A stretch of DNA of 64,000 bases from an uncultured Bdellovibrionales bacterium (GTDB lineage Bacteria > Bdellovibrionota_C > UBA2361 > CAYQVO01): NCBI GenBank assembly GCA_964421085.1, contig CAYQVO010000002.1, positions 91,134-155,133 of the forward strand. The letters are read 5' to 3'. The translations under genes and the position numbers were made by a program. The notes under the pieces are model-generated. The model had not been told where the DNA came from, ran no database searches, and saw nothing but the letters and a program-made list of their open reading frames with translations. How positions within the stretch are numbered: position 1 is the stretch's first letter; each line of letters begins with the position of its first letter. This document shows, piece after piece, positions 3,866 through 38,390 of this stretch.

Positions 3866-3980
3866 CGGGAAAAGTAGCGAAAACCAATGTGAAAAAGCAC
3901 TATAATACTCCCAGAAAACACCGTTAAGGGAAATACCTGACCGGCAAAAAATCTTTGAATTCCGGCGGCTTAAAACGAGG

Positions 3981-4325
3981 TTGTCAACTGACAGGCACCG
4001 CACTACTCTCGCTTTGATGGGAAGGATCGAACGCGAAAGAAAGACCATTTCGGCAATGATCGCCATTTACTGTCATAATCGGCATAGAAGCCGGGATGCC
4101 GTCTGCCCGGCCTGTTTCGAGCTTCTCGAGTACGCCCATGATCGCCTTCAAAAGTGCCCGTACCGGGGGGGAAAGCTCTCGTGCAGGCTTTGTCCGACGC
4201 ACTGCTACAATGAGAACATGAAGGAGCGGATCAGGGGAGTTATGCGATTTTCAGGTCCCCGCATGCTGTTCCGGCATCCGGTTCTGGCGCTGCGGCACTT
4301 CCTTGATGAGCGCCATGGCTCGTAA
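3981..4325 (+). CDS. Small Cys/His-rich protein, YgbA-like (nitrous-oxide-stimulated promoter family)
   Basis: 114 aa with motifs IYCHNRH...CPACFELLEYAHDRLQKCPY...CRLCPTHCY...MRFSGPRMLFRHP. The cysteine spacing and a C-terminal 'GPRML' segment resemble YgbA-family proteins. Assigned from memory of the family only. Confidence 0.4.
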   Translation: MSTDRHRTTLALMGRIERERKTISAMIAIYCHNRHRSRDAVCPACFELLEYAHDRLQKCPYRGGKLSCRLCPTHCYNENMKERIRGVMRFSGPRMLFRHPVLALRHFLDERHGS

Positions 4326-4629
4326 CAAGAGCACAATCGAAAAAACAGCCCAAATGCATTCAACTCTCTATCCCGCCGCGAACGGTGTAAGAAGCGGCTT
4401 TCCATGATGATCCAAATCATCAGGACCCACATTCCGGCGCGCTAGCATCAACCCACAATACAAAATGGGTAGATTCGACGGCAGGCAGGCGAAGAGACTT
4501 CAAGAACGAAGCGTCTTCGCTTGCCTGAGAGTCTGGAAGGTTTTAAAGAGGTTTCACACCGGAGAGATTGCGCGATTCTTCTCGAGAAATGGCGCAAAAT
4601 CCAAATCTCTCCGGTTACAGGAGGCTGAC

Positions 4630-5133
4630 ATGAAAAGTGTCGGTTTTGCTATCGGCTGTGCGGTGCTGTGCGCGATTCTTTCGGGATGCAGTGGAGGATT
4701 CAACGGACACCCACCCCCACAAGGCTGCGACTGTGAAGAACTGGCGCGCCAGCTTGAGGCACGCGGCTGGGAGCTGTGGGTCGTGCAGGAGGGGGGCACC
4801 CCCAGGTCTCTCCAATACTGCACGGAAGCCAGTCCTCTCCGTGCGGGTGTCGACACGTGGTTCATGGCAAGGGTGAAGCCGGGAGACCGGCCGGCCAGGC
4901 TGATTTGCTTCCGGGACCTGCCGGACTGCGCCTGTGATTTCTGCCTGAAGGGGGGGATTGATCAGGAGGAACCGGACCAGGATGGGTCGTTTTCGTTCCG
5001 GTATGACCGGAATGAGGCGGCTGCAGTAACATTCGAACCCGGAAGATGGATGACAACCCGGGGAGTCCGTCTCTGCATCTGCGAGGTGGAGGTTGCGCTC
5101 CCGGGAGATCCGTATTCCTTCTGGGCCGAATAG
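4630..5133 (+). CDS. Lipoprotein, hypothetical
   Basis: Internal start MKSVGFAIGCAVLCAILSGCSGG has a signal peptide plus lipobox (LSGC) and is preceded by AGGAGG at about 4618. The listed ORF (4465..5133) has a long unlikely N-terminal extension. Cys-rich mature part. Confidence 0.45.
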   Translation: MKSVGFAIGCAVLCAILSGCSGGFNGHPPPQGCDCEELARQLEARGWELWVVQEGGTPRSLQYCTEASPLRAGVDTWFMARVKPGDRPARLICFRDLPDCACDFCLKGGIDQEEPDQDGSFSFRYDRNEAAAVTFEPGRWMTTRGVRLCICEVEVALPGDPYSFWAE

Positions 5134-5207
5134 TACCGCCCTCGCAGCAAAGGTACCTGTCTGAGGTTTTCTGCGGATCGTTGCAGAAAGGTCATCGCTG
5201 CAGACCC

Positions 5208-6653
5208 TCAGGCAAGTACCTTCTTTTCGAAACACTGATTCGAAGAACACTGCTTTGAAGGACACTGTCCGTTCCAGCAGTAAAGGCAGAGTCTCTCCCT
5301 CGGGAGACCGACAGCTTCCACCAGATCGTCGATGCGCTGGTAGCGGAGAGTTGTTGCTCCGAGATCCTTTACAATCCAGTCCACCATCTTTCCATGCTTT
5401 GTTGTCGATTCATCGACGTATTCGCGCACGTCCTCGATATCATGGCCTTCGATAGCCTTAATCGCCTTTCTGGCAGCCAGTTCCTTCCGCGATCTTGTCG
5501 AGAGATTGAACCGGCAGGGGAACATCAGCGGAGGGCAGGCAGCTCTTACATGAACCTCCGTTGCTCCCGCATCCCAGAGCTTTGAGACCGTATAATTCTT
5601 CAACTGCGTTCCCCGGACGATGGAGTCTTCGCATACGGTTATCCTGTTGCCGTCGATGATTTCCTTTATCGGAACGAGTTTCATTGTGGCGACAAGGTCC
5701 CGTGTTTTCTGGGACGGCGGCGTATAGCTTCTTCCGTATCCAGGAGTGTATTTTACAAGAGGACGCCTGAAAGGTTTTCCGCTTTCCATCGCATACCCGA
5801 CCGCGTGAGCGACCCCTGAATCGGGAACTCCGGCGACCATATCGGTGTCGATATCAGTGTCCCTTCTGGCAAGGGCGCGCCCGCAGTTTTCACGCACAAT
5901 TTCAGCGCTGATTCCCTCGTAACTCGACGCGGGAAATCCGGCGTACACCCAGAGGAACGTGCAAATCTGCGCGTCAGTGCCGCCGGTTGCCTCTGTTTTC
6001 CATCCCTTTTCATCGATCAGTACAACTTCCCCCGGAGCGAGTTCGTAAACTGCCTTGTACCCATTGTTTGAGAAAGCGGTAGTCTCACTTGCCACCGCTG
6101 TGCCGTCATCGCGCGAGCCAAGCACGAGAGTCGTGTATCCTCTGCGATCTCTTGCAGCGTAAATGCCCTTTTCATGAAGAAGGAGCAGGGAACATGATCC
6201 TTCAATCACACTGAACATGTGCTTGACACCCTGCGTGATGGAGCCGCCCCGCGTAATGAGCTTTGCGACCAGTTCCGTCATGTTCACAGTTCCGCGGCTC
6301 ACCTCGGAAAACGAGAGCCCTTCCTCCATGAGCTGCAGCGAAAGTTCGTGCGCGTTTTCGATGAAGCCGATAGTTGCGAGGCAGAACCGTCCGAACTTCG
6401 AATGAATGTATACAGGCTGCTCATCAAGGGAACTTACGGCACCGATTCCTTTATTGCCCTCCAGCCTCCGGCCGTGTTCAAAAAACTTCCCCTTGAACTG
6501 GCTGTGACTGATGTTGTGAATTTCGCGGACAAATTCGCAGTTAAGTACCGCGATGCCTCCGAACTCGGTTCCCATATGCGAATGGTAGTCGGTTCCGTAA
6601 ATAAGTGTTTCGTAACAGTCGTTTGTGGATACGACTCCGAAAATACCGCTCAT
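5208..6653 (-). CDS. purF: Amidophosphoribosyltransferase (glutamine PRPP amidotransferase)
   Basis: 481 aa. N-terminal MSGIFGV...CYE matches a class-II glutamine amidotransferase with Cys2 nucleophile. Central PRTase motif VCEDSIVRGTQL. C-terminal cysteines are typical of the 4Fe-4S type PurF. Confidence 0.9.
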   Translation of the reverse strand: MSGIFGVVSTNDCYETLIYGTDYHSHMGTEFGGIAVLNCEFVREIHNISHSQFKGKFFEHGRRLEGNKGIGAVSSLDEQPVYIHSKFGRFCLATIGFIENAHELSLQLMEEGLSFSEVSRGTVNMTELVAKLITRGGSITQGVKHMFSVIEGSCSLLLLHEKGIYAARDRRGYTTLVLGSRDDGTAVASETTAFSNNGYKAVYELAPGEVVLIDEKGWKTEATGGTDAQICTFLWVYAGFPASSYEGISAEIVRENCGRALARRDTDIDTDMVAGVPDSGVAHAVGYAMESGKPFRRPLVKYTPGYGRSYTPPSQKTRDLVATMKLVPIKEIIDGNRITVCEDSIVRGTQLKNYTVSKLWDAGATEVHVRAACPPLMFPCRFNLSTRSRKELAARKAIKAIEGHDIEDVREYVDESTTKHGKMVDWIVKDLGATTLRYQRIDDLVEAVGLPRERLCLYCWNGQCPSKQCSSNQCFEKKVLA

Positions 6654-17785: not shown

Positions 17786-18769
17786 ATGTTAGATGCGCGT
17801 GTTCAAAAGCTGGATAAGAAAAACCTGTACCTCCTTTCTCTGCTCGATTCAAACTGCCGGATGCCCCTTTCGGAAATGGGCGCAAAGCTTCGCATGACCA
17901 AAGAAAGCATTCACTACCGCATAGGCGAACTGGAAAAGTCGGGGATCATCGATCGCTACTACGTCATCATCGACACCGCAAAACTGGGCTACTATTCGTT
18001 CAAACTCTACCTTCAGCTGCAGCGGGTCCGAGGACCGAGCATCGCATCATTTGCCGGGTTCCTGGCGGATGACCCAGCGGTGTACTGGCTTGCGCATACG
18101 ATAGGCAAATTTGACATTATCGTCGGACTTTGGGTGCAGAACCAGATGGAGTTCGACTCGTTTCTAGTGCGGTTGATGAAGAAGCACGGGGCGAAGATTG
18201 CTGCAAAGCAGTTTACGATCACAAAGTATGGGTTTCAAACGAGCAGAAAGTGGCTCTTCGACAATCAAAACCCGAGCCTGTCAATAATCGGAGGACCTGC
18301 CTTCCAGCATTCCATCGACGCCCTGGACTGGAAAATTCTTTCCCTGCTCTCGACGAACGGAAGGCTCTCCTATTCGAAAATTGCGCAGGAGTGCGGCTCG
18401 ACTGCCGCAACGGTAATTTCCCGGGTAAGGAAACTGGAGAAGTCAGGCGTCATCACGGCGCACCGCATTCACCTGAATCTGGAGAAGCTCGGCATGGAAT
18501 TCTACAAACTCTTCGTCGTGCTGTCCGACAAGACCGAGACTCTCGAAAAGAAAATGATCGAGTACTGCAGCAGGCACCGCAACGTGCTGAATGTTTTGAC
18601 GTGCGTGGGTCCCTGGGACATGGAAATCGAGATAGAGGCGAAGTCTCTCGCCGAACTGAACGAAGTCACACTCGAACTACGGGGTAAATGGCCGAAGAAC
18701 GTGCACTCGGTGGAGTTGGTGTCCATTGTGTCCGAGAAGACGCCGGTATTTTTGCCGAAGGCGAAATAG
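17786..18769 (+). CDS. Lrp/AsnC-family transcriptional regulator with two tandem HTH-RAM modules
   Basis: 327 aa. Two AsnC-type HTH segments (LDKKNLYLLSLLDSNCRMPLSEMGAKLRMTKESIHYRIGELEKSGII and LDWKILSLLSTNGRLSYSKIAQECGSTAATVISRVRKLEKSGVI), each followed by a RAM-like domain. Confidence 0.8.
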   Translation: MLDARVQKLDKKNLYLLSLLDSNCRMPLSEMGAKLRMTKESIHYRIGELEKSGIIDRYYVIIDTAKLGYYSFKLYLQLQRVRGPSIASFAGFLADDPAVYWLAHTIGKFDIIVGLWVQNQMEFDSFLVRLMKKHGAKIAAKQFTITKYGFQTSRKWLFDNQNPSLSIIGGPAFQHSIDALDWKILSLLSTNGRLSYSKIAQECGSTAATVISRVRKLEKSGVITAHRIHLNLEKLGMEFYKLFVVLSDKTETLEKKMIEYCSRHRNVLNVLTCVGPWDMEIEIEAKSLAELNEVTLELRGKWPKNVHSVELVSIVSEKTPVFLPKAK

Positions 18770-19974: not shown

Positions 19975-21135
19975 ATGAGACACGCGGCAATCATACTTCT
20001 CGCCGTCTTTTCATTTGTGTCCATTTACTTATGGTCCATCGACTATTTCCGTTTTCAGGATTTTTCCATTTACTGGAACGCCATCCGGCTCTTTCTCGAA
20101 GGAAAAAACCCGTACGATCTCCCTCATCAGACATCTTACGTTACCGGACAGTGGGGGGCGAAGGACACCTACCATGAAATTTACAAAGCGTGGACGCATC
20201 CGTTTTCTCTGGTCATACTCCTGCCGTTCGGGCTTTTTTCTCTTCATACCGCCAAGTATATTTATCTGTTTCTGGCGGGGATAACGCTTTTTGCTTCTAA
20301 TCTCTGGTGTGCCCGCGTTTATCTTGGCGAGAGAGGGCAGCGCGACTGGTATGCCGCGATATTGGCGGTTCTCTGCATCCCCTATGGCCATCTCGCGTAC
20401 CTCTTCGCCTTCGGAGGACTCGGATGGATCCTGCTTGGAAGCGCTGTCGGCGCCCTTGCGCTTTGCACTGCAGGTTTCCCGTTTCTGGCGGGATTCTGCC
20501 TGGTGATATTGCTGCTCAAGGTGCAGGTTACTTCGCTGATACTTGCGGGATTTCTCTTCCGGGCTGTGATGCTGAAGCAGAAGCGGATTATCGCAGGGTT
20601 TGTCGCCGGATGCCTTCTTAGCATTTTGATTGTGCTGATTCTGAATCCTGCCGCGCTGCGTTACCACACCGAGCTGGATGCGTCGCTTACGCTTCGCCAC
20701 TGGTTTGCAACCGAGTCATTGAACAGGCTTTTCTATGTCTTCCTGGGCCGGTTTCAAGTGGAACTCATGACGCTGGTCTGGATCGCCGGGTTTCTGCTGA
20801 CATTGTTCGTCACAGCCCGGCTCCGCATGAGCGGCTTGTCCGGCCTCCTCGCTCTTCTCACGGGATTTTCCGTTCTCTTCAGCCCGTATGTGTGGCCTTT
20901 TGACTACATCCTCTGCGCTCCTCTTCTGTGGGCGACCGCAGGCCGCGCGAGAGAATCCGCCGCGGGTTGGAGGGGCGCAGTATGTATTGCAGCGCTTCTC
21001 TCGTTCCAGGCCGCGGGAGCGGCTGTTTTTATGGAAGGTTTTTCCCTTTATTCGCCGAGCGCGATAGCAGTCGTCATTCTGCTATCGGCGTCGAACGGCG
21101 CTGATTTTCAAGTCACCGGGCGGCGAAAGAGATAG
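19975..21135 (+). CDS. Polytopic membrane protein, DUF2029/GT87-like (putative glycosyltransferase)
   Basis: 386 aa with about 10 TM helices and the early motif ...IYWNAIRLFLEGKNPYDL..., reminiscent of the GT87/DUF2029 mannosyltransferase-like family. Assignment is tentative. Confidence 0.4.
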   Translation: MRHAAIILLAVFSFVSIYLWSIDYFRFQDFSIYWNAIRLFLEGKNPYDLPHQTSYVTGQWGAKDTYHEIYKAWTHPFSLVILLPFGLFSLHTAKYIYLFLAGITLFASNLWCARVYLGERGQRDWYAAILAVLCIPYGHLAYLFAFGGLGWILLGSAVGALALCTAGFPFLAGFCLVILLLKVQVTSLILAGFLFRAVMLKQKRIIAGFVAGCLLSILIVLILNPAALRYHTELDASLTLRHWFATESLNRLFYVFLGRFQVELMTLVWIAGFLLTLFVTARLRMSGLSGLLALLTGFSVLFSPYVWPFDYILCAPLLWATAGRARESAAGWRGAVCIAALLSFQAAGAAVFMEGFSLYSPSAIAVVILLSASNGADFQVTGRRKR

Positions 21136-22172: not shown

Positions 22173-23018
22173 TTACGCCGCAAAGATCCCCAGTTGTTTC
22201 GGCCCGTGTCTTTCGAAAGCGGGAGGATCGAGTTTTTCCGGAGCAAGTTTCCGCACTGCCGAAATGAGATGGCGCGCAGAATCAGGTCGCAGCCAGTGGA
22301 ACCTGAACTGCCGCGCAAGCTGACGCGCGATATGAGACGCGCGCATTTTTTTCTCAACGGGTTCTGAACAGTCTGCAAGAGGCCTAATATAAATTCTGTC
22401 TGCGTTTTCCGCGAGCAGTTCAGCGAAAGAAGGCGCGTCCTGCACCCAGTCCCCGTACGGAAGGAGAGGGGCAGCCTGAAGAGTCACCGGAATCCCAAGT
22501 TTGCGGAGAGTCCGAACGGCTCTCAGCCGTTCTTCAATCCGCGGCAGACCTGGAGTGTATTTTGCGACACTCTCCTCGAGGGGAGTCTCGAGTCCTATTG
22601 TGACAGATGCATGAGAAGCGAGGCGTTTCAGAACCGGCACTGCAAGCACTATGAGGGGGCTTCTTGTCTGAACGACAAGCCTTGCGGGTGTGTAACGGGA
22701 AAAGAGATCGAGGAATCTCATGCTCGCGTCAAATCCTCCTTCAAATGGATGAAAAGGATCGCGTGTGACTCCGAAGTAAATGTATATCTCTCTGAGATTA
22801 CCCTGCCTCGAGAGGCGGAGCATATGGTTTTCGAGCTGTGTTAGGGGCGCCTTTCTGTTCAAAAGGTAGCGGCTTCTCAGCTGCGGAACGGCCCCCTCAT
22901 CGTTCAACCGCAGATGAAAGTGCTCTCTCGCGTCGGTTTCAGGAGCAAGTCGATGCGCGCCAACAGCCACTCCATCGGCAAATGAATCGACAGTGTAAAT
23001 GATGCGGGCCTCGTTCAT
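22173..23018 (-). CDS. Hypothetical protein
   Basis: 281 aa, soluble, with no motif I can name. Rich in Arg and Leu. No radical-SAM CxxxCxxC motif despite a faint resemblance to photolyase-like TIM barrels. Confidence 0.35.
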   Translation of the reverse strand: MNEARIIYTVDSFADGVAVGAHRLAPETDAREHFHLRLNDEGAVPQLRSRYLLNRKAPLTQLENHMLRLSRQGNLREIYIYFGVTRDPFHPFEGGFDASMRFLDLFSRYTPARLVVQTRSPLIVLAVPVLKRLASHASVTIGLETPLEESVAKYTPGLPRIEERLRAVRTLRKLGIPVTLQAAPLLPYGDWVQDAPSFAELLAENADRIYIRPLADCSEPVEKKMRASHIARQLARQFRFHWLRPDSARHLISAVRKLAPEKLDPPAFERHGPKQLGIFAA

Positions 23019-23258: not shown

Positions 23259-24275
23259 ATGGGCAGGTGGATAAATCGCGGACGTCATGATTCATGGGGG
23301 ATGCACAGAGCTGCTGAGAAAACCGAACCGCTTTCGATTTCGTGGCGGGCGGTCATGGCCGGAGCGATTCTCGTCCTGCTTGCCCTGGAAGTGGTCTGGT
23401 ACTTTGTGCTGCCGAAAAAAAGTGAATATGAGTCCACTCAGAACAAGCTTGCGGTTGGACAGGAGGCAAAGGCCGTCAGTCTGAACATCCCCATTTACCG
23501 GGCAGCGGGACCGGTCACGGCGAGTGTCCGCGAGCTTCAGCGCATCAGAAGAGATGTCGCGAAAAAGCACGATGCCCTCCTTTCGAAGCCGTACCGGAAT
23601 TTCGATCTGCTTTTTATCAGCGCGGTCAGCGGTAAACCCTGGTGGTCGGTTGAAGGATATTATTTTACCGGCAAATCGCAGACCGTCACCCCGGGAACTC
23701 CGGCGGAACTTCTCGGGATAGCGAATCCTTTTCTGCTTGTGGTGCCCGACTTCACCGGTCTCTCAATCCGGGGAAGGCTGGTCTGGGACGCGGCGAAAAT
23801 CAATCCCGATGTCCTTGCATCTCCGGAATTTCCGTTCCGCCCCGAGCCTCATGCTCTCGAATGGTTTCCGGGTCATGCGCGCGCCGAGGTCAAGTACAGC
23901 GTGTCGCACTACATTGACATGGTAAATCGATGGGCAAAGGCGCCTCTTACTGAAGCGGATATCCGCTTTGACGCTGTCACGTATAACGCGATGGAGTTCG
24001 GCTACCGGTACGCGGGCGTTCTGCTGAACGAGTCTTCGAATATCCAGCTCGAAACGGCCCCGTCACCTCCGGCGCCTGTGCTGATGACATATATCAACTC
24101 TCGCGATGCATGCGGAAATCCGGAAGGGTGCAACGTGAGAGCCGCCCTCCCGCGGGGGCTGGTCAATATTCGTGCCGCATATCTTCCGGCCCTTGCTGTG
24201 TTTGGACTTTGGAAGGAAAAACCGGAATCTTCAGAGGTGAAACCGGATCTCCGTTTTGCTATAATAATAAAGTAG
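23259..24275 (+). CDS. Membrane-anchored hypothetical protein
   Basis: 338 aa with a single N-terminal TM helix (MAGAILVLLALEVVWYFVL) and a large extracytoplasmic domain with no recognisable motif. Confidence 0.4.
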   Translation: MGRWINRGRHDSWGMHRAAEKTEPLSISWRAVMAGAILVLLALEVVWYFVLPKKSEYESTQNKLAVGQEAKAVSLNIPIYRAAGPVTASVRELQRIRRDVAKKHDALLSKPYRNFDLLFISAVSGKPWWSVEGYYFTGKSQTVTPGTPAELLGIANPFLLVVPDFTGLSIRGRLVWDAAKINPDVLASPEFPFRPEPHALEWFPGHARAEVKYSVSHYIDMVNRWAKAPLTEADIRFDAVTYNAMEFGYRYAGVLLNESSNIQLETAPSPPAPVLMTYINSRDACGNPEGCNVRAALPRGLVNIRAAYLPALAVFGLWKEKPESSEVKPDLRFAIIIK

Positions 24276-24297
24276 GTTTAATAAGGAGGCAGGCGGC

Positions 24298-24567
24298 ATG
24301 TCGGGCAGGCGAAAGGGCGAAAGCGGTGCGAGTCTTATGGAATACGTTATTCTCCTCAGTTTTGTCGCCATGGCTGTTATTCCCGTAGTCAAGTATTTTG
24401 GTCTTCGTGGGGCGTGCAGAGAATGTGTGAACGCCTGCGCGATTTCGCCTCCGCCCGAAAACGTGGATACGTGGCTGAACCCGGCACACCGGCAGTCCGT
24501 CATAGATGGCTGCGCTTCCGGGTCCTACTCTGTTGAAGCCCTCTGCGGTTCGTGCAGCACCGGGTAA
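24298..24567 (+). CDS. Small Flp/Fap-pilin-like protein with a Cys-rich C-terminal extension
   Basis: 89 aa. The N-terminus, MSGRRKGESG|ASLMEYVILLSFVAMAVIPV, fits the Flp prepilin motif G/xxxxEY followed by a hydrophobic helix. The C-terminal 50 residues carry 7 Cys (GACRECVNACAISPP...DGCASGSYSVEALCGSCSTG). RBS AAGGAGG at about 24283. Confidence 0.45.
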   Translation: MSGRRKGESGASLMEYVILLSFVAMAVIPVVKYFGLRGACRECVNACAISPPPENVDTWLNPAHRQSVIDGCASGSYSVEALCGSCSTG

Positions 24568-24987
24568 CGGGGTGTCACATCGGGGTTGAAGCAGGCGTCA
24601 GACCTCTCAGAGTTTTCATTTCAAAATTTTCCGGCGGGCTGGAACCCCCTTTCCATTTTTCCACGAGAAAAAATAATCGCGGCATAAACGGCAACGAGAA
24701 AAATAGAGGCAAGGCCGTTGAGAAGCATAGAGAGGAGGCGGCCGTCCGCGGCAGCGGACGATACCGGCGCCGCTGTAAGTCGTGACAGTAAATCCATTAA
24801 AGGGCTCAATTAGTTCAGGGACAGGCGGCGAATGACGCCGATCCCCCGGAGGAAGCCGGAGGATTGGCCGGCAGGTTATTTTCGCGTTTTTTGGGGTGCT
24901 TATGACGGCAAAAGGGCATGGCAAGGGTGGGTGAACAGGCCGCCGTCATGCTCCGAATCGCCCCCGGATCATTTCCCATCATAAATA

Positions 24988-25758
24988 ATGCAGAGATCAA
25001 CTGCAGATGAAGTTGAAGTATTGAAAATGAGACAGCTTGTGGAGGATAGAGACATCACCATCGAGGCAGGCGCGTCTGTTCAGGAAGCGGATGCAGACCA
25101 TGTCGATATGCTGCTCCTTGGAGAGCTCAGCGGGAAGCTTTCTCCGGAACGCATCTATCCGTCGTCGATTGAAGGCAGGTGTGCGGATGAAAACGTCGAA
25201 CGTCACATTGCGCGTTACAGGTTCGCCGCGGAATTTATCGGCGAGGGTGATGTTGTGCTCGATGCGGGATGTGGAGCGGGGTATGGTTCCGCGATAATCG
25301 CAGCAAAGGCAGGATCAGTAATCGGTGTCGACATATCCGGCGAGGCTGTGGGTTTTGCCCTCGCGACATATCAGAGAAAGAACGTAACTTTTTTGTGCGA
25401 AGATCTGGCCAGGTTCACACGTAAAGACGGAGAGTTCGACGGTGTAGCATGCATCGAAACATTGGAACATCTCGCACCGGAATTGTGCAGGAGTTTCATG
25501 AGAGCAGTCCGGCGATTGCTCAAACCCGGGGGGGTTCTAATAGCGTCATCTCCCATGCTGCGTTACAAAAACGGAAAGCCTTTCATCACGAATCCTCACC
25601 ACATCAACGAAATGCCAAGAGATGCGCTCCTGAGATTTTTCGTCGAAACTCTCCCGGGTTTTGGGTTTCAGTTCTTTCACCAGAAACAGAACGTTTTCAC
25701 GCCTCTTCTCGATGAGAACACAGGGTTTTGTGTCGTCGTGGCGCGGAAGGAAGGATGA
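24988..25758 (+). CDS. Class I SAM-dependent methyltransferase
   Basis: SAM-binding motif VVLDAGCGAGYGSAIIA, then motif II/III (DGVACIETLEHL, LKPGGVLIASSP). 256 aa. Confidence 0.8.
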   Translation: MQRSTADEVEVLKMRQLVEDRDITIEAGASVQEADADHVDMLLLGELSGKLSPERIYPSSIEGRCADENVERHIARYRFAAEFIGEGDVVLDAGCGAGYGSAIIAAKAGSVIGVDISGEAVGFALATYQRKNVTFLCEDLARFTRKDGEFDGVACIETLEHLAPELCRSFMRAVRRLLKPGGVLIASSPMLRYKNGKPFITNPHHINEMPRDALLRFFVETLPGFGFQFFHQKQNVFTPLLDENTGFCVVVARKEG

Positions 25759-26648
25759 TGCCGCCCGATCCCGGTAAAACAATCGCGGATAATCTGCAAC
25801 GGGTAGATGAACTAGTGGAAGGCAGCCTCCGGATTCTCGACGGTTATCCGCTCTTCAGCTGGCTGGAGATCACAGCGACGGATTCGTGCAATCGACGGTG
25901 CGTATTCTGTCCGCATCCGGCAGCTCAGTCAAAGGCCGGCCACTTCATGGCAAAAGCATTGTATGAAAAAATAGCGGTTGAGCTCGAGGCGGTGGGATAC
26001 TGTGGAACTGTGATGCTGGCAGGATACGGAGAACCCCTTCTTTCACGGAATATAGTGGACATGACACGTGTCTTTGCCGGAATCTGCAACACTGAAATCA
26101 CAACCAACGGCGATCCCCTGACACCGCGGTTGATCACGGAACTGATGAACGCCGGAGCTTCGAGGCTCATCGTCAGCCTTTACGACGGCCCCCATCAAAT
26201 CGAGAAATTCTCCTCTATGTTCGCGGAGGCAGGGGCCCCGTCCGTGTTCTACGTTCTGAGAGACCGATGGTATCCGGCGGAAAAAGATTTCGGTCTCAAA
26301 CTGACCAACCGCGCAGGGACCGTTTCTGCCGGGAATCAACCCCCTGTCGATGAGAGCCGGGCATGCTTTTACCCGCACTATATGATGATGGTAAACTGGG
26401 AGGGCAGTGTGTACCTGTGCACTCAGGACTGGAACCGGAAGCAAGCCTGCGGAAACCTCACGACAAGCTCGCTTCTGGAGGTATGGACGTCTCCGCCTTT
26501 CAGGAAATACCGGACGCTTCTTGCAGATGGGCGGCGCGCAATCGAGCCTTGTTCAGAGTGCAACGCTGATGGAATGATGCACGGGAGGAATCATGCGCGC
26601 GGATGGGGGATTTTTTACGGGAAAATGCCGGCGAATGAACCACGATAA
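25728..26648 (+). CDS. Radical SAM enzyme with C-terminal SPASM/twitch domain
   Basis: CxxxCxxC cluster motif (TDSCNRRCVFCPHP), GGEP-like motif (GYGEPLL), and a C-terminal auxiliary-cluster cysteine pattern (CFYP...YLCTQDW...ACGNL...EPCSECN). Overlaps the upstream methyltransferase and the downstream aminotransferase, so they are translationally coupled. Confidence 0.8.
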   Translation: MCRRGAEGRMMPPDPGKTIADNLQRVDELVEGSLRILDGYPLFSWLEITATDSCNRRCVFCPHPAAQSKAGHFMAKALYEKIAVELEAVGYCGTVMLAGYGEPLLSRNIVDMTRVFAGICNTEITTNGDPLTPRLITELMNAGASRLIVSLYDGPHQIEKFSSMFAEAGAPSVFYVLRDRWYPAEKDFGLKLTNRAGTVSAGNQPPVDESRACFYPHYMMMVNWEGSVYLCTQDWNRKQACGNLTTSSLLEVWTSPPFRKYRTLLADGRRAIEPCSECNADGMMHGRNHARGWGIFYGKMPANEPR

Positions 26649-27984
26649 ATTGAAAGATCCATCTCCTCCTGCCTCACTCACGCGGGATCTGATGGAATCC
26701 ATGCCCGATAGAATCCTGAATGAGAGCTACGGGAAGGCGCCCGGTTCCCTCTATATCCGCAGCGCATCCGGATGTTTTATCGAAGATATCGACGGCAGGC
26801 AGTACATCGACATGGCGCTTGGAGGTGGTACCGCGATTCTTGGACATGCCGGTGCCTGTGTCACGGATCGTATCATTTCCCGGATTAAGTCCGGCGCCAT
26901 TTACGCAGTCCCAAATCCCATCGCGCATCAGTATGGCGAAGTTCTGCATGAAGCGATGCCCTGGTTCTCGCATTTCGCTTTCTGCAGCACCGGGTCGGAG
27001 GCGACGATGCGGGCTGTCCGCATTGCAAGGGCCTTTAACGGCAGGCGGAAGATTGGACTGTTCAGCGGCGGCTGGCATGGTTCGCACGATATGGTTCTTG
27101 TGGAGGAGGATTATTCGGGGCCGGAAGCAGAGCCGCGGATGGTTCTGAAATCAGCAGGCACGCCGGAGGAGATCAAAGATCTCATCGTCTTCCTTCCTTA
27201 CAACCATCCTGACGCGTTCGAGCTGATTCGAAAAAATCGATCCGAACTCGCAATGATCATGATTGAGCCGTCCCAGGGATCCAACCCACGGGATGACGTC
27301 GTTCAGTTTCTTCGCGATCTGAGGAAGGTGACGGAGGAAACTGACATACTGCTCTGCTTCGATGAGATCATAACGGGCGGGAGGCTCGCCCTGGGCGGAG
27401 CTCAGGAACTGTACGGGATTCATGCGGATCTCGCGACTTACGGAAAGGTGCTTGGGGGAGGTCTTCCAATAGGAATCGTCGGTGGAAGAGAGGAGGTAAT
27501 GCGTGTCATTCGACCCTCCGCCGCGGAGAATCGCACTCCTGTGTTTCTTGGAGGGACTTTTTCCGCAAATCCGCTCTCTGTTGCGGCAGGGATGGAGGTG
27601 ATGAGGTATCTCCGGGAAAATGAAGCGGTCATCTATCCGTGTTTGAATGAGAACGGAGCTTTGTTGAAGAACGGTGTGAACGAATTCTGCGAAGCACGAA
27701 ATATTCCCGCATATATGACCGGAGCCGGATCGATGCTTCGGCTCGTTTTCAGCAGCCGCTCCGTCAGGTCCCGCCGTGAACGGGATTTTGCCGAAGTAAA
27801 TCCGGAGGTGCAGAAAGAATTTTATGCATCGCTTCTCGCATCGGGCGTGCATGTGGGAACGAACCGGCTTAATTTTCTCTCGATTTGTCATGATCAGACG
27901 ATTATACGGAAGGTGCTGGACTCGTATACGGAAAGCCTCGATAAATTCACCGTGGCGGGGAGATTCCGGAGATCTGCGGAATGA
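26635..27984 (+). CDS. Class-III (PLP, fold type I) aminotransferase, glutamate-1-semialdehyde aminomutase-like
   Basis: Motifs GSEATMRAVRIARAFNGRRKI and DEIITGGRLALGGAQELYGIHADLATYGKVLGGGLPIGIVGGREEVM (PLP lysine region). The start is uncertain (26593, 26635 or 26695). Confidence 0.8.
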   Translation: MNHDKLKDPSPPASLTRDLMESMPDRILNESYGKAPGSLYIRSASGCFIEDIDGRQYIDMALGGGTAILGHAGACVTDRIISRIKSGAIYAVPNPIAHQYGEVLHEAMPWFSHFAFCSTGSEATMRAVRIARAFNGRRKIGLFSGGWHGSHDMVLVEEDYSGPEAEPRMVLKSAGTPEEIKDLIVFLPYNHPDAFELIRKNRSELAMIMIEPSQGSNPRDDVVQFLRDLRKVTEETDILLCFDEIITGGRLALGGAQELYGIHADLATYGKVLGGGLPIGIVGGREEVMRVIRPSAAENRTPVFLGGTFSANPLSVAAGMEVMRYLRENEAVIYPCLNENGALLKNGVNEFCEARNIPAYMTGAGSMLRLVFSSRSVRSRRERDFAEVNPEVQKEFYASLLASGVHVGTNRLNFLSICHDQTIIRKVLDSYTESLDKFTVAGRFRRSAE

Positions 27985-28366: not shown

Positions 28367-29749
28367 TTATTTTCTGAGGGCGAGCCTCTGATAAACAAAA
28401 TCCGGCGCTTTGCGGGCTGTGGCTTCTTCATAATGCGCCTTTGCCGTCACGGCATCCGAAGGATCCTGAGAGGAGACAAGTTCCTCCGCGACGATCCGGA
28501 GGATTTCGTGGATTCCTTCACCGCTTTTGACACCTTTCATCCAAAGCTCCTTTATCCGGCCAGTGTGCAGGGAGAGGTCCGGCGAATCTGCTGACAACTC
28601 CTCCGCATCGAACATCGGAAATTCTATCGGAGAGGCTCTGTTTCCAGGTTTGATTGTAATTCTCGGCATGTATGCTTCGGGAAGATTCACACTGTGAAGA
28701 AATTCAGCGATTTCATTCTCGCTCTCTTTCTTCAGCTGGAACCGCGTGTCGTCCAGACATATTCCGAAGGAATCTCCGCACTTTTTCAACCGGGACACGG
28801 TGTTCATGAACTTCTCATACCCAGGAGAGGGGATAAGGCCGCCTCCCGCAATTTTCGAGATATGAGAGTCATTAAGCCCTGGTCCAATGCACCGGTCATC
28901 GGAGTATTCAAGAGGTTTATTTCGAGCATTTTGCCCCGCGAACAGCTCGTCAAAACGGATTTCGAAATCGCTCTCGATACTCCGGTAAGGTATCATCGAG
29001 AACTGCGAGTGGAGCGCGGCAAAGTACACAGCGAACACCTCATTCAGGAATTCCGGCATCACGAAATCCCTTCCGGACATCCTGGCAGCCGTTATCAACG
29101 CTTTCGAAAGGAGATACAGGTCGAAATCCCGGAAAAGAACCAGCAGTTCCCTGAAGTAGAGGAGGAAGGGGACTGTGTATGTGGTTGCTTCACCCCCGAA
29201 GAGGGCACTGCGGCAGAGTGACTGGAGCTTGACATTGAAATGCGTGAGAGCTTCGAGATCGCGCCTTTGAGCGTAAATGACATTATCGTGCATCAAAAAA
29301 GGCATGCTCAGCCATGCCGGAAAGACGTGAACTTTTCCCTGAAATATCTGCGGGAAGGAACCAAAGGGGGTGATTTGCGGCACTTCCCGCCTGTTCAGCG
29401 CGGGGAACAGCTGCTTCATGGAAGGGGAATCTCTGTCGGCTCTGATACGGAAAATGAGGCTGTCATCGGGACACAGCGACAGCCCATTAAACAGGGTCGC
29501 ATGCTGCTGCATGAAATATGCATGCATCGGGAGAAGGTCTACTGGCTCTGAAGAAACAGTCGTGATGCCGTATTTTCGCAGCTCGGACTGCAGGTGCGGT
29601 CTTCCGACAAGCTCCTCTTTCCATGTCGAGAAGATAATTTCATCGACAAGACCGTCAGATCGCCACTGGAGCAGCCGCGTGATGGTTACCATGAACTCGA
29701 GTGAGTCACGTATCTGACCAGTCACAATGGCATAGATCCGTTTTCTCAC
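28367..29749 (-). CDS. Hypothetical protein, paralog A of a divergent pair (unknown family)
   Basis: 460 aa. The N-terminal roughly 250 aa align with the protein at 29859 (YAIVTGQIRDSLEFMVTITRLLQWRSDGLVDEIIFSTWKEEL vs WAIICGLVRDRRAFEEKINSLVQWRSEGILEETVVSTWLGEL; LCPDDSLIFRIRADRD vs SCPDDAHVLKLRADLF; FPQIFQGKVHVF...DNVIYAQRRDLEALTHFNV vs WPQIFNERVVVG...GDVYFYGLRDDLKKLVTFTV). I do not recognise the family. Confidence 0.5.
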   Translation of the reverse strand: MRKRIYAIVTGQIRDSLEFMVTITRLLQWRSDGLVDEIIFSTWKEELVGRPHLQSELRKYGITTVSSEPVDLLPMHAYFMQQHATLFNGLSLCPDDSLIFRIRADRDSPSMKQLFPALNRREVPQITPFGSFPQIFQGKVHVFPAWLSMPFLMHDNVIYAQRRDLEALTHFNVKLQSLCRSALFGGEATTYTVPFLLYFRELLVLFRDFDLYLLSKALITAARMSGRDFVMPEFLNEVFAVYFAALHSQFSMIPYRSIESDFEIRFDELFAGQNARNKPLEYSDDRCIGPGLNDSHISKIAGGGLIPSPGYEKFMNTVSRLKKCGDSFGICLDDTRFQLKKESENEIAEFLHSVNLPEAYMPRITIKPGNRASPIEFPMFDAEELSADSPDLSLHTGRIKELWMKGVKSGEGIHEILRIVAEELVSSQDPSDAVTAKAHYEEATARKAPDFVYQRLALRK

Positions 29750-29858: not shown

Positions 29859-31019
29859 ATGAGAAACTGGGCGATAATCTGCGGATTGGTGAGAGACAGG
29901 AGGGCTTTCGAGGAGAAGATCAATTCTCTCGTACAGTGGAGGTCGGAGGGGATTCTCGAAGAGACAGTTGTTTCCACCTGGCTCGGAGAACTCAATGCTT
30001 ATGAAGGCCTTTCGAAGAGCCTGGCCGACAAAGGTGTCATTGTTCTGGAGAGCCTCGAGCCGGAGCTGATCCTTTCGGGTCACAGGATCCATCAGATGAA
30101 GACGCTCGCATACGGGTTGGAATCGTGCCCGGATGACGCTCATGTACTGAAGCTCAGGGCTGATCTCTTCTCTTTTTTCCCCGGTATAAAGCAGGTGCTG
30201 GAAGGGCGGGTGGATACGGCCATTGCGCCGGATCCCGGATGGCCGCAGATCTTCAATGAGCGAGTTGTTGTGGGCACCTTCCTGCCCATTCAGCCATTTT
30301 TCATCGGGGACGTTTACTTCTATGGATTGAGAGACGATCTTAAAAAGCTTGTTACATTCACAGTGGAGCCGGAACTATGCTCTCTGCTGATGAATCCCGA
30401 ACAGGTTTTTCATTTTGCACCCTTCCGGAACCATTTTCAGTTCTTCTTCCAGTATTTCCGGATCAATCCGGGCCTTGTACATCACAGCGTTCAGATGGCG
30501 AGCGATCTCGTGAGGTTCCTGCTCGACGAACCATTTTTCCTGAAAACACTCGCGTCCTGGTTGATGCTTCTCCGGAGGTATTACAGGGTCGGATTCTTCG
30601 AGCGAAGCGAAGGACATTCGCTGCAGGCAGCGGAAGAATTCGCAGGAGTCTCGCTGCCGGAATTCCTTGACCCGATGCTGGAATGTGGGCCTTCATTCCG
30701 CTATGTGGTAAGGCCTGCCAACGCCGTGGGTGGGTCTGATGACGCATGGGTTGCCCCCTGCCTCAACGGAGATTTTCAGCATGATGTGTTCCGCGACCGT
30801 TTCATGGAAGCAGTGGACAGCTTTCCGGATTTTGAATCCTTCCAGAGATTCGGCCAGTCCCCGCTCTACCTTTCAAGTGATGCGATAGAGTTCGCCCGCA
30901 GGCTCAAAAAGAGATTTCCGGATGCGCCCTTTGTCCTGGAAGATCTCCCCGAATCGAGGGGGAGGAGTGTAAGGATCCAGGGGAAACCTTTCGACGGAAT
31001 GGTCAGAGCGGGCCGCTGA
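29859..31019 (+). CDS. Hypothetical protein, paralog B of a divergent pair (unknown family)
   Basis: 386 aa, homologous to 28367..29749 (see there). Divergently transcribed from a shared 109-bp intergenic region. Confidence 0.5.
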   Translation: MRNWAIICGLVRDRRAFEEKINSLVQWRSEGILEETVVSTWLGELNAYEGLSKSLADKGVIVLESLEPELILSGHRIHQMKTLAYGLESCPDDAHVLKLRADLFSFFPGIKQVLEGRVDTAIAPDPGWPQIFNERVVVGTFLPIQPFFIGDVYFYGLRDDLKKLVTFTVEPELCSLLMNPEQVFHFAPFRNHFQFFFQYFRINPGLVHHSVQMASDLVRFLLDEPFFLKTLASWLMLLRRYYRVGFFERSEGHSLQAAEEFAGVSLPEFLDPMLECGPSFRYVVRPANAVGGSDDAWVAPCLNGDFQHDVFRDRFMEAVDSFPDFESFQRFGQSPLYLSSDAIEFARRLKKRFPDAPFVLEDLPESRGRSVRIQGKPFDGMVRAGR

Positions 31020-35300: not shown

Positions 35301-38300
35301 ATGGATCCGAACAGGCTGATAATCGACTTTAAAAAGCAACTTGGTAACAGAAACACCTCCGCTGTTCATGCTCTCGATATCTTCCGTGATTTGAGAGACG
35401 TTCTGGAGCAGGAAACAAAATCCGATCCTCTCCTTGCCGCAATAAGGGAAAATATACTGCGGCTTTTCATGCAGAGATCCTGTCTGCTTCCCGACCTGGA
35501 ACGTGAGGCGGCTGTTTTGAACCTGATTCTTCAGGATTCCCGTTCCAATACTGCTGAAATATCCTCCGGGCTGGAAGAATGGGGGCGCTCAGTCGCGGAA
35601 CTTTCTGAAATCCTGCGTGGAATCAAAACCCATGTGACACAGATGGCGACGCGACACCGTATGACGGAGCAGAAACCTTCCGTGGTCCGGATTGAAAACA
35701 GTAATTTCAGCGAGGCTCGTGAACTCAATATAAAGATCCTCGCCTGCGAGATGCTGCTTGGCAGCACCGATCCGGCTCCCTTTCCTCCGAACATGCAGGT
35801 GGAATCAACCAGCAGGTGCAATGCGCGGTGCAGAATATGCGGGCACTTCTTCCATCCCGCCAGGGCATACAGAGATCTCGATTTTCAGGTGTTTCTCAAA
35901 TTGTCGCCCGTTCTTCCGTATGTCCAGTGCCTTGAACTGCACACTTATGGAGAAGCCTCTCTCGCGCCGCATTTCACCGCCATGTGCGAAGTCTGCAGGA
36001 GCTTCGGCTGCAGAACGCATGTGCTTACAAACGGCTCGACTCTTGGGGTGGATAGTCCCCTGGCAGACGTAGACCAGATTGGAATCAGCGTTGATTCAGA
36101 CAACGAACGCACCTTTGACGCCGTCCGCAAAGGGCTGCGGTTCAAAACAGTGATCGAAAACATCAAAGCGTTTCGCCGGCGGAATCCGGACAATTTCATG
36201 TACTTTCTGGTGACGATACACCGGGCGAATGTAGATGAAATATCCGGCATAGCCGGACTAGCCTGCGATCTGGGCCTTCAGGCCGTCTGCCTCAGTCTCA
36301 TGTCGGCCATTCATCCGTCACTGCGGCCGGTCACTTTAACGGCCCAGGACGTTCCTCTTTACCGGGAGGAAGTGGAGAAAGCAGAAAGAATCTGCTCGAA
36401 GCGCGGCGTAGATGTGTATGATTACGCTTTTCTGGACGGTCTCCCCGATCAGACGGAACCTCTGAACAAGGAGGCATGTTTAAGGGTGTTCGAGTCGCTT
36501 ATCCCTCCATCTGCCGGCGCGCCGCCCGATATTGAAGAGTTGACAACGAGGCTCGCAAAGATTGAGTGCGGCGCATATCCTGCGTCCCTGCACCGGTTTT
36601 TCACACTGGAAGCCGCGTCTTTCGAATCCACTCGAAAAGCGGAGATCGAAAGAGTCCATGAAGACACTTCTATGGAACCTGTCACGGTCGATACCGGCAG
36701 GCTGAAGGAACGGCTGCATGAACTCCGGAGTGAAATAGAAAGGCGGGGCAGGGATGCGCTCGTAATTCCGTACTGTACCGCCCCCTGGTTCAGGCTTGAA
36801 GTGAAGGCGGACGGAGGGATCTTCCCCTGCTGCAGCTGGAAAGGACCACCGTTTGCCGATCTTGCAGTTCAGTCTGTCGCGGAGATATGGCACGGGCCGT
36901 TCATGACGGCGCTCAGGCAGGGATGTTACGGCGAAGGAGAACTCCCTCCTTTCTGCCTGAACTGCAGGAGCATAGACCGTTATCAGGGCCTGACTGAAAC
37001 GATCAGCACGATGAACGAATTCGGCCTGGACTATAACACAATCCGGAAGATTCCCGGGTTTTCTCCTCCGCCCGGGAAACTCCAGCTTATACGCGCGGGC
37101 GCGCCGGAGATTGAATACGTTCCCATTGATAAATCGTATCCGGGAGGATTTTACGAACTCCGGGGGGATGCAGAAGGGCGGGGGAACAGGAGCAGTGGTT
37201 ACGACTTTGTCATCTCGCCCGGCCCCAGGCTCTTCTGCGAAAGACCTTCGAGCATGCGAAGCAGAAAGATTTCCTGTGGAGTTCTCGGCGGCGCTTCCCT
37301 TCCTTTGAAGGACATCCTGAAGCTCGAAGGACGCCCGCGTGTATCGATAACAGAAACCGCTCATGAATTATTCCCCTCCGGTCTTTTGTTTGTGTCTGTC
37401 CGTTTCCGTAATGAAGGTGAAGTGCCGCTCTTCGGCAGGGATTCGCATCCCGATTGCGTGGACAGAGCGGGACTGCGCGTGCTTAAGCAGGAAGCCGGAG
37501 TCACATCGGCAGCGCGTGAAGAAAGAATGGATATGCCGTTTGAGTGGATACTCCCCGGATCGGAGTACCATATCTCGGGACTCTTTGACTTCTCGGGCCT
37601 TGAACCCGGGACATACACGGTGGAGACAGGAATTGTCCGGGAAGGAGAATTCTGGATTTCGGAGGAATCTGAACGGCGAAGCTTTGAAATAACCACGGCA
37701 GAAGCCTCAACCATGACTCCTGTCGAAGTGTCGAGAGTTCCGGGATCGAAAGGGATTGCGCTTACATTCGACGCGGGAGCGTCAATACCGCCTTCGGACG
37801 CCCTTCTCGATTTTCTGCAGAAGAGGCGGATGCAATGCACAGTTTTTCTGACCGGGAGGTCGATAGCCTCTTTTCCTGAACATGCGCGTCGCATCGCGAA
37901 TGAGGGGCATGAAGCGGCAAACCACACATACAATCATCCATGGCTGTCCTTTCTGCACGATCCCCATCCGGCGCAGGGAGTGGACAAAGACTTTCTCATG
38001 AAAGAGCTTTATTCCACCGAAGAGGCCTTCTTCAAAACGACAGGGCGCACGATGTCGAGACTCTGGCGGGCTCCCTACGGAGCAAGAAACGCGGAGATTC
38101 TCAAATGGGCGATGGAAGAAGGATTTACTCACGTTTTCTGGTCGCACGATTCAAACGACTGGAGGATAGGCTCTTCCCTTAATTCCATGAAGTGTACCCC
38201 GCAGAGCGTCTTTGAGACGCTTAAGAACAAACTTCGCCAGTTTGATGATGCCGATGGCGCTGTAGTTCTATTTCACCTCTCGACCTACAATCAACCGGAC

Positions 38301-38390
38301 ATGCTTTCAGAGATGTCGAAATTCATCGACTGGATTGCCGGCCGGGGTCTTGCCTTTCGGACGGCAGGCTCTCTTCTCACGATGATCTGA
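35301..38390 (+). CDS. 1029-aa fusion protein: N-terminal helical domain, radical-SAM core, SPASM domain, beta-rich linker, and C-terminal NodB-type polysaccharide deacetylase domain
   Basis: Radical-SAM cluster motif ESTSRCNARCRICGHFF at residues about 166-180. SPASM cysteines IPYCTAPWF...GGIFPCCSWKG...GCYGEGELPPFCLNCRS at about 490-560. NodB motifs IALTFDAGAS...CTVFLTGRSI...GHEAANHTYNHPWL at about 820-910, with conserved Asp, His and His positions present. Confidence 0.8.
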   Translation: MDPNRLIIDFKKQLGNRNTSAVHALDIFRDLRDVLEQETKSDPLLAAIRENILRLFMQRSCLLPDLEREAAVLNLILQDSRSNTAEISSGLEEWGRSVAELSEILRGIKTHVTQMATRHRMTEQKPSVVRIENSNFSEARELNIKILACEMLLGSTDPAPFPPNMQVESTSRCNARCRICGHFFHPARAYRDLDFQVFLKLSPVLPYVQCLELHTYGEASLAPHFTAMCEVCRSFGCRTHVLTNGSTLGVDSPLADVDQIGISVDSDNERTFDAVRKGLRFKTVIENIKAFRRRNPDNFMYFLVTIHRANVDEISGIAGLACDLGLQAVCLSLMSAIHPSLRPVTLTAQDVPLYREEVEKAERICSKRGVDVYDYAFLDGLPDQTEPLNKEACLRVFESLIPPSAGAPPDIEELTTRLAKIECGAYPASLHRFFTLEAASFESTRKAEIERVHEDTSMEPVTVDTGRLKERLHELRSEIERRGRDALVIPYCTAPWFRLEVKADGGIFPCCSWKGPPFADLAVQSVAEIWHGPFMTALRQGCYGEGELPPFCLNCRSIDRYQGLTETISTMNEFGLDYNTIRKIPGFSPPPGKLQLIRAGAPEIEYVPIDKSYPGGFYELRGDAEGRGNRSSGYDFVISPGPRLFCERPSSMRSRKISCGVLGGASLPLKDILKLEGRPRVSITETAHELFPSGLLFVSVRFRNEGEVPLFGRDSHPDCVDRAGLRVLKQEAGVTSAAREERMDMPFEWILPGSEYHISGLFDFSGLEPGTYTVETGIVREGEFWISEESERRSFEITTAEASTMTPVEVSRVPGSKGIALTFDAGASIPPSDALLDFLQKRRMQCTVFLTGRSIASFPEHARRIANEGHEAANHTYNHPWLSFLHDPHPAQGVDKDFLMKELYSTEEAFFKTTGRTMSRLWRAPYGARNAEILKWAMEEGFTHVFWSHDSNDWRIGSSLNSMKCTPQSVFETLKNKLRQFDDADGAVVLFHLSTYNQPDMLSEMSKFIDWIAGRGLAFRTAGSLLTMI

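Follow-up and report, generated by a model that had tools for sequence, protein, structure and literature searches.

A putative Flp-type pilin-like protein with a cysteine-rich tail and the conserved gene beside it

Does the short open reading frame at 24298..24567 (+) of this DNA encode a pilin of the Flp type or the precursor of a modified peptide (RiPP)? Its N-terminus resembles a prepilin, its C-terminal tail is rich in cysteine and a radical-SAM/SPASM enzyme is encoded downstream. The preliminary description of the window (the whole stretch of 64 kb that was analysed) had kept both readings. The ORF that it reported was recovered at exactly this position, and we treat it as a Flp-type (type IVc/Tad) pilin-like gene on the basis of the ORF listing, a homologue and profile matches. 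It starts with ATG and encodes 89 aa including the leader (MSGRRKGESGASLMEYVILLSFVAMAVIPVVKYFGLRGACRECVNACAISPPPENVDTWLNPAHRQSVIDGCASGSYSVEALCGSCSTG), with a predicted mature protein of 79 aa. A strong Shine-Dalgarno sequence, AAGGAGG (24283..24289, +), is read 8 nt 5' of the ATG. A consensus scan returned a sigma-70-like promoter match, GTGAAA-17-TATAAT with a TG extension (24237..24265, +; 10/12 positions), that falls within the 3' end of the preceding gene, called here the partner gene. A TATAAT was found at the equivalent place in the homologous locus L001, and another lies 5' of the gene in locus L002. The match is a possible candidate for a promoter dedicated to the pilin gene.

A word-indexed search of 5.8 billion protein clusters returned the window protein itself and a single relative, P0002, an 88-aa protein from locus L001 (a Logan assembly) with 66% identity, in which the six cysteines and the entire hydrophobic segment are invariant. 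Synonymous sites are saturated between the two genes (pS 0.74) while pN is only 0.20, which shows that a genuine gene is present here and that purifying selection on it is strong. The gene is followed by a spacer of 420 nt (24568..24987) that separates it from a methyltransferase gene. No Rfam match was found in this spacer, nor a clear intrinsic terminator right after the pilin stop codon, and a scan of the whole window for Rfam families and tRNAs returned none. The spacer also holds a 62-aa ORF (24621..24809, -) with one hydrophobic segment, which is not conserved in L001.

The N-terminus had been matched to the Flp/Fap prepilin signature (G|ASLMEY followed by a hydrophobic helix), and this assignment is well supported. 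The first ten residues (MSGRRKGESG; 24298..24327, +), as read directly from the sequence, form a hydrophilic, basic leader that ends in Gly at position -1. They are followed by a hydrophobic alpha1-N segment of 21 residues (A11-V31, ASLMEYVILLSFVAMAVIPVV; 24328..24390, +), delimited by sequence, hydropathy and alignment, with a Kyte-Doolittle maximum of 2.34 at residue 13. The segment carries the Glu at +5 (E15) and the Tyr at +6 of the Flp motif and aligns with the GASLVEYxLLxxLIA core of Flp pilins. Class III signal peptides are described as a hydrophilic leader that has 6-26 aa and ends in Gly, then about 21 hydrophobic residues broken by Glu5 (PMC4471445). The window protein has each of these features (10-aa leader, 21 hydrophobic residues, E at +5), and a prepilin-peptidase cleavage site is predicted at G10|A11. 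When the entire window was translated in six frames, a relaxed pattern of the Flp motif turned up at this one place only.

Profile comparisons gave the same picture. A two-sequence profile (window protein and P0002) searched against 1.84 billion representatives produced 21 matches at E<1e-3, nearly all of them Flp pilins of 56-111 aa with the ...ERGASLVEYxLLxxLIA...FFG core. The Pfam family PF04964 was matched by 12 of the 15 aligned relatives (best E-value 1.9e-8). The window protein itself (P0001) gave no PF04964 match even at E<=10 and thus stays below the gathering score. In a profile-profile alignment with nine classical Flp pilins by hhalign, it scored a probability of 99.1% and an E-value of 1.2e-18 over residues 2-40. 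One match, P0006 (3972 aa, E 5e-7), was discarded as an artefact: it is a tandem-repeat, eukaryote/virus-like polyprotein, and its score is spurious because six copies of 'CAECVQANAVGEPREW' add up. Judged by sequence, the homology of its N-terminus places the window protein in the Flp (Tad, type IVc) pilin lineage, of which it would be a divergent member.

The tail (50 residues; 24415..24564, +) was defined by the cysteine positions and an AlphaFold2 model, in which it comprises the end of alpha1 and three short helices. Seven cysteines had been counted in it; the protein contains six, at positions 40, 43, 47, 72, 83 and 86. That such a tail is atypical of Flp pilins was borne out, since it forms a six-Cys extension of 40-50 residues. 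A remote subgroup of relatives (P0005, P0008, P0009, P0010 and P0017) aligns with a CxxC directly after alpha1, equivalent to C40 and C43, one Cys at C72 and one at C83. C47 and C86 are a further pair, present in the window protein and P0002 beyond the cysteines of the remote subgroup. By this alignment the Cys-rich tail is unusual yet not unique.

The AlphaFold2 model, built from a 15-sequence alignment, has a mean pLDDT of 81.9 and is all-helical, with helices at residues 13-49, 53-60, 62-74 and 79-86. With their i, i+3, i+7 spacing, C40, C43 and C47 share one face of alpha1, and C83 and C86 share one face of the last helix. From these faces on alpha1 and on the last helix we infer disulfide staples between helices in the periplasm. 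The earlier suggestion of an unusual Flp-like protein stabilised by disulfides is supported by the Flp profile homology, the conservation of the cysteines and the all-helical model, the disulfides themselves being predicted. Our literature searches returned no paper that named Flp pilins together with disulfides or with radical-SAM links.

Conserved Cys pairs in the periplasm usually form disulfides. The same cysteines, in the pattern CxxC...C...CxxC, could instead hold a metal ion or a cluster. The two CxxC-type spacings (C40/C43 and C83/C86) with two more cysteines would suit such a site, and a weak match to PF06750, the Cys-rich N-domain of prepilin peptidase, was detected (E 0.004). That match, at 17.6 bits, does not reach the cut-off of 23, however, and it overlaps with the hydrophobic helix. 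The predicted periplasmic location, the even number of cysteines at matching positions in the remote subgroup and the lack of a CxxCH haem motif also speak for disulfides, and we regard metal or cofactor binding as quite improbable.

If the gene belongs to the Flp lineage, what does it travel with? Four loci with context are available, the window and the three homologous loci L001, L002 and L086, and in all four the pilin-like gene adjoins a member of the partner family. When the four loci were compared all against all, the pilin-like gene and the partner were the only families common to all. In the window the partner gene (23259..24275, +) lies directly 5' of the pilin-like gene and was recognised by its conserved adjacency, its homologues and its hydropathy. 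It encodes a signal-anchored protein of 338 aa with a charged N-terminus, a single hydrophobic anchor at about residues 29-51 that includes a conserved E-x-x-W-Y, and a predicted extracytoplasmic domain of about 285 aa with a conserved CGxxxxC. The motifs KPWxS, PAExLGxxNPxLLxxPDFxGLS, FD...N..F, CGxxxxCNxR and LPAxAVFxxW are invariant among the family members, which are 300-340 aa long. Like the pilin-like gene, it is under purifying selection (pN 0.19, pS 0.62).

The arrangement varies from locus to locus. L001, which carries P0002, is organised as the window is, with a partner of 338 aa and 67% identity; its 3' side is occupied by a HAD hydrolase gene and an alternative-complex-III operon. 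In L002 the pilin-like protein is the remote P0005, and the partner (P0025, 304 aa, 33% identity) is divergently transcribed. In L086 the remote P0009 has the partner directly upstream, with about 33-35% identity. This last homologue (3114..3917, +, of its locus) contains an in-frame TAG at 3285, within the KPWxS motif, and more stops upstream. It would be a decaying gene, a C-terminal remnant of 204 aa or the result of a misassembly in this one contig of low coverage. An alternative genetic code as the reason for this stop was discounted, since the codon is TAG and the other genes of the contig end in TAA, TAG or TGA. The contigs of P0008, P0010 and P0017, of only 0.7-1.3 kb, contain neither the partner nor tad genes. 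Taken over the loci with context, gene order argues firmly that the pilin-like gene and the 338-aa partner form a conserved two-gene module, and the two proteins may interact physically.

The partner family is small. A word-indexed search gave one close homologue, a three-sequence profile added P0025 alone, and only three intact members were found among the 5.8 billion protein clusters. Scans of genome contigs and metagenome contigs found nothing more. No match was obtained in Pfam, NCBIfam, PDB, PADLOC or PHROG, and the best hit of the partner profile among PDB chain sequences (E 0.78) was to the TM segment of an unrelated protein. On these searches the partner is to be regarded as a novel, previously undescribed family. 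AlphaFold2 with a two-sequence alignment reached a pLDDT of only 35.6, so that any role given to the partner is a guess. The conserved Cys pair and the signal-anchor suggest that it is periplasmic, in the same compartment as the pilin tail.

Two other genes near the pair have counterparts in the homologous loci. At 22173..23018 (-) the window encodes a 281-aa protein with a radical-SAM fold (PF04055, E 2e-5; the PA0069/Rv2578c-family models were sub-threshold). It cannot bind the radical-SAM [4Fe-4S] cluster because it has a single Cys and lacks CxxxCxxC. Its counterpart in L001, at the equivalent divergent position, is 80% identical, and the protein looks like a conserved, cluster-less derivative of a radical-SAM enzyme. 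A membrane glycosyltransferase of the GT87 family (GT-C type, polyprenyl-phosphate-sugar dependent) is encoded 3 kb upstream of the pair (19975..21135, +), and in L086 the pilin-like gene is followed, after 122 nt, by another GT87 gene (4300..5346, +, of its locus), whose product shares 28% identity with that of the window over 179 aa (E 6e-5). L002 has no GT87 gene, and L001 is cut off on the relevant side. GT87 may be a third associated gene, perhaps for glycosylation of the pilin or the partner, or its presence may be a coincidence.

The conserved neighbour bears directly on the RiPP question. In that reading the small protein would consist of an N-terminal leader and a core peptide, the Cys-rich tail, in which the radical-SAM/SPASM enzyme encoded at 25728..26648 (+) installs cross-links. 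SPASM enzymes install thioethers on Cys-rich peptides, six cysteines lie in the last 50 residues of the protein, and the enzyme gene, which had been placed 1.2 kb downstream, does start on the same strand 1160 nt after the pilin stop codon. Yet none of the three homologous loci (L001, L002, L086) has a radical-SAM/SPASM neighbour, the genes found instead in L002 and L086 being unrelated ones, so that the co-localisation that the preliminary description had proposed looking for was not found. The pilin gene travels with its partner and not with a radical-SAM enzyme, which makes a RiPP precursor very unlikely.

The enzyme and its own neighbours point the same way. The 306-aa protein (PF04055 and PF13186) has one CxxxCxxC, about 50 residues before it, and only five C-terminal cysteines, and looks rather twitch/BtrN-like. 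Only the Radical_SAM and SPASM domains were detected in it and no RRE/PqqD domain. The NCBIfam models of RiPP maturases were all far below their cut-offs, as were its best NCBIfam matches (W-cofactor maturase, MoaA, twitch). The gene lies beyond the 420-nt gap, in a run of genes typical for sugar or surface-glycan chemistry, and its ORF overlaps both that of the methyltransferase (24988..25758, +) and that of a class-III aminotransferase of the GSA type (26593..27984, +). Further genes of this sugar-nucleotide/glycosyltransferase cluster encode a GDPD protein, a nucleotidyl-transferase, a HAD protein and a GT61. The pairing of a radical-SAM dehydrogenase with an aminotransferase occurs in BtrN-type aminosugar pathways. 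The more natural reading of the ORFs at 24988..27984 is that they resemble radical-SAM-dehydrogenase and transaminase chemistry on aminosugars or aminocyclitols and not peptide maturation, and the radical-SAM/SPASM gene is most likely part of a pathway for cell-surface glycans.

The small protein does not fit a RiPP precursor either. In place of a soluble cytoplasmic leader it has a transmembrane class III signal with homology to those of pilins, and such a signal would put the Cys-rich tail in the periplasm, apart from the cytoplasmic radical-SAM enzyme. The other radical-SAM-like neighbour, at 22173..23018, is no better candidate, given its single Cys and lack of CxxxCxxC. Synteny and domain evidence together essentially refute the RiPP reading.

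Some other genes of the window deserve mention. In the glycan-type cluster, two divergent genes, at 28367..29749 (-; 460 aa) and 29859..31019 (+; 386 aa), encode paralogous proteins, related over the N-terminal ~200 residues (36% identity, E 2e-27), for which Pfam and NCBIfam gave no match. A second SPASM enzyme of this cluster (35301..38390, +; 1029 aa) is a fusion of Radical_SAM and SPASM domains with a C-terminal polysaccharide deacetylase, an unusual architecture. On the other side of the pair, a 327-aa protein (17786..18769, +) contains two tandem HTH units of the Lrp/AsnC type, that is, a duplicated AsnC regulator, and its gene is flanked by those of two periplasmic binding proteins of the branched-chain-amino-acid type.

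If the protein is a pilin, a secretion and assembly machinery would be expected, and the absence of a tad locus nearby had already been noticed. We confirmed this: in the 64 kb window (24 kb upstream and 39 kb downstream of the gene), none of the ORFs with 150 aa or more contains a domain of the Tad/Cpa machinery, and the leftover ORFs of at least 80 aa do not include a multi-TM, prepilin-peptidase-like protein. Likewise, no tad genes (TadV/CpaA peptidase, TadA/CpaF ATPase, TadB/C platform, RcpA/CpaC secretin) were found in L001, L002 or L086. Homologues lying in tad loci away from radical-SAM neighbours had been named as evidence against a modified peptide; the radical-SAM neighbours are indeed missing, but so are the tad loci, and a novel partner adjoins instead. 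Assembly into a pilus is unproven because no Tad machinery gene lies in any of the four loci.

These results leave room for a protein that is not part of a filament. It could be a small bitopic protein of the inner membrane that is never polymerised, with its leader cleaved or not. Its head in the periplasm, stapled by disulfides, would then work together with the partner's periplasmic domain, for example in a sensor, an anchor or an envelope-modifying complex. The four loci lie neither in a tad locus nor close to one, the partner is the only invariant neighbour, and both proteins have a conserved Glu in their single hydrophobic segment, all of which would agree with such a module. However, the N-terminal 40 residues are as close to bona fide Flp pilins as those are to each other, and the retained Gly(-1), Glu5 and Tyr6 serve processing and filament packing. 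Orphan genes for major pilins are known, KilP being one, and the tad genes could sit elsewhere in the genome. A non-filament module is possible, and we consider it on the whole unlikely.

Our preferred reading, which we hold to be moderately probable, is that of an orphan and divergent Flp/Tad-type pilin-like protein with disulfide-stapled C-terminal helices that works with a dedicated signal-anchored partner. The prepilin would be inserted into the inner membrane via its class III signal, and a prepilin peptidase of the TadV/CpaA type, with its gene elsewhere in the genome, would cut after Gly10, leaving a mature protein of 79 aa that carries Glu5 and Tyr6. The extra 40-50 C-terminal residues would fold back in the periplasm as short helices, and up to three disulfides would tie them to the end of alpha1; for these bonds C40, C43 and C47 would offer one helical face and the returning helices would supply C72, C83 and C86. 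The outcome would be a small rigid head, which ordinary Tad pilins of 40-60 aa do not have. The partner, in the same membrane and with its own conserved intramembrane Glu, would act on or with the pilin, perhaps as a factor in its assembly or maturation, as an anchor or as an outer component with a gene of its own. In this reading cleavage at G10|A11 is predicted, and the protein may be incorporated into a Tad filament.

A more speculative proposal is that the two genes form a self-contained unit in which the partner is the outer, tip or anchoring component of a disulfide-stapled Flp subunit, or in which both belong to an envelope module that is not a classical pilus. The unit would then be a Tad-lineage counterpart of the PilA-N/PilA-C pair of Geobacter or a new pilin-dependent envelope module, and it may be further modified by the GT87-type glycosyltransferase found near the pair in two loci. 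We regard this proposal as rather doubtful.

Among type IV pilins the Tad/Flp proteins count as the minimal form, with 40-60 residues, a single helix and no head domain. The structural range of type IVc pilins would be widened by a lineage whose helical head is stapled by disulfides, and if that lineage is obligately paired with an undescribed periplasmic protein, type IV filaments would gain a new accessory family. In addition, the annotation as a RiPP, tempting but wrong, can be dropped. The family is extremely rare, with four loci among billions of sequences, and its practical impact is limited because of this rarity and because it has been seen only in uncultured deltaproteobacteria-like organisms.

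How does the protein compare with known systems? Similar to the Cys-rich RiPPs matured by radical-SAM/SPASM enzymes (sactipeptides, ranthipeptides/SCIFF), it has a C-terminal Cys cluster and a SPASM enzyme encoded within about 1.2 kb. It differs from them in that the adjacency is not conserved, no RRE is present, the signal is of a membrane-inserting type and the enzyme is encoded in a glycan-type operon. With the Flp/Fap pilins (PF04964; Flp1 of A. actinomycetemcomitans, PilA of C. crescentus) it has in common the class III signal with a basic leader ending in Gly, the Glu+5/Tyr+6, the 21-residue alpha1-N segment, the small size and the all-helical prediction. Tad pilins are 40-60 residues long and have no C-terminal domain (PMC10710030), whereas the mature window protein would have 79 aa, with an extra helical extension of 40-50 residues and six cysteines. 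Unlike the Flp/Fap pilins, it also has no PF04964 score of its own and no adjoining tad genes in any locus.

Geobacter sulfurreducens offers a possible analogy for the conserved pilin-partner pair, since there a short helical PilA-N is completed by the product of the adjacent gene, which forms the outer globular part of the subunit (PMC10710030). The analogy does not extend to the proteins themselves. PilA-N is a type IVa pilin and not a Flp pilin, and PilA-C has 104 aa and is encoded directly downstream, whereas the partner family is membrane-anchored, 300-340 aa long and encoded upstream or divergently. The search of PDB chains likewise gave no significant match that would relate the partner to PilA-C (best E 0.78).

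A further likeness, by description, is to KilP of Myxococcus xanthus (mxan_5121, 97 aa), the major Flp pilin of the Kil/Tad predation pilus (PMC12075869). KilP is longer than usual for a Flp pilin, is helical throughout and includes a second helical region, and its gene is an orphan, distant from both kil/tad clusters (mxan_3102-3108 and mxan_4648-4661); it is processed by a peptidase that has its gene at a distance and differs from the one encoded in the clusters (PMC12075869). The mentions of cysteine found for KilP concern an engineered A96C label (PMC12075869), and nothing like the 300-340-aa partner is described for it. As to the host, the MreB of the window is at most 70-73% identical to those of MAGs labelled Deltaproteobacteria, Bdellovibrionales or Binatia, which puts the source in a deep-branching, uncultured lineage of deltaproteobacteria-like type, to which Myxococcus is related. 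Because KilP is likewise an orphan, the absence of nearby tad genes is by itself no argument against a pilin role for the window protein.
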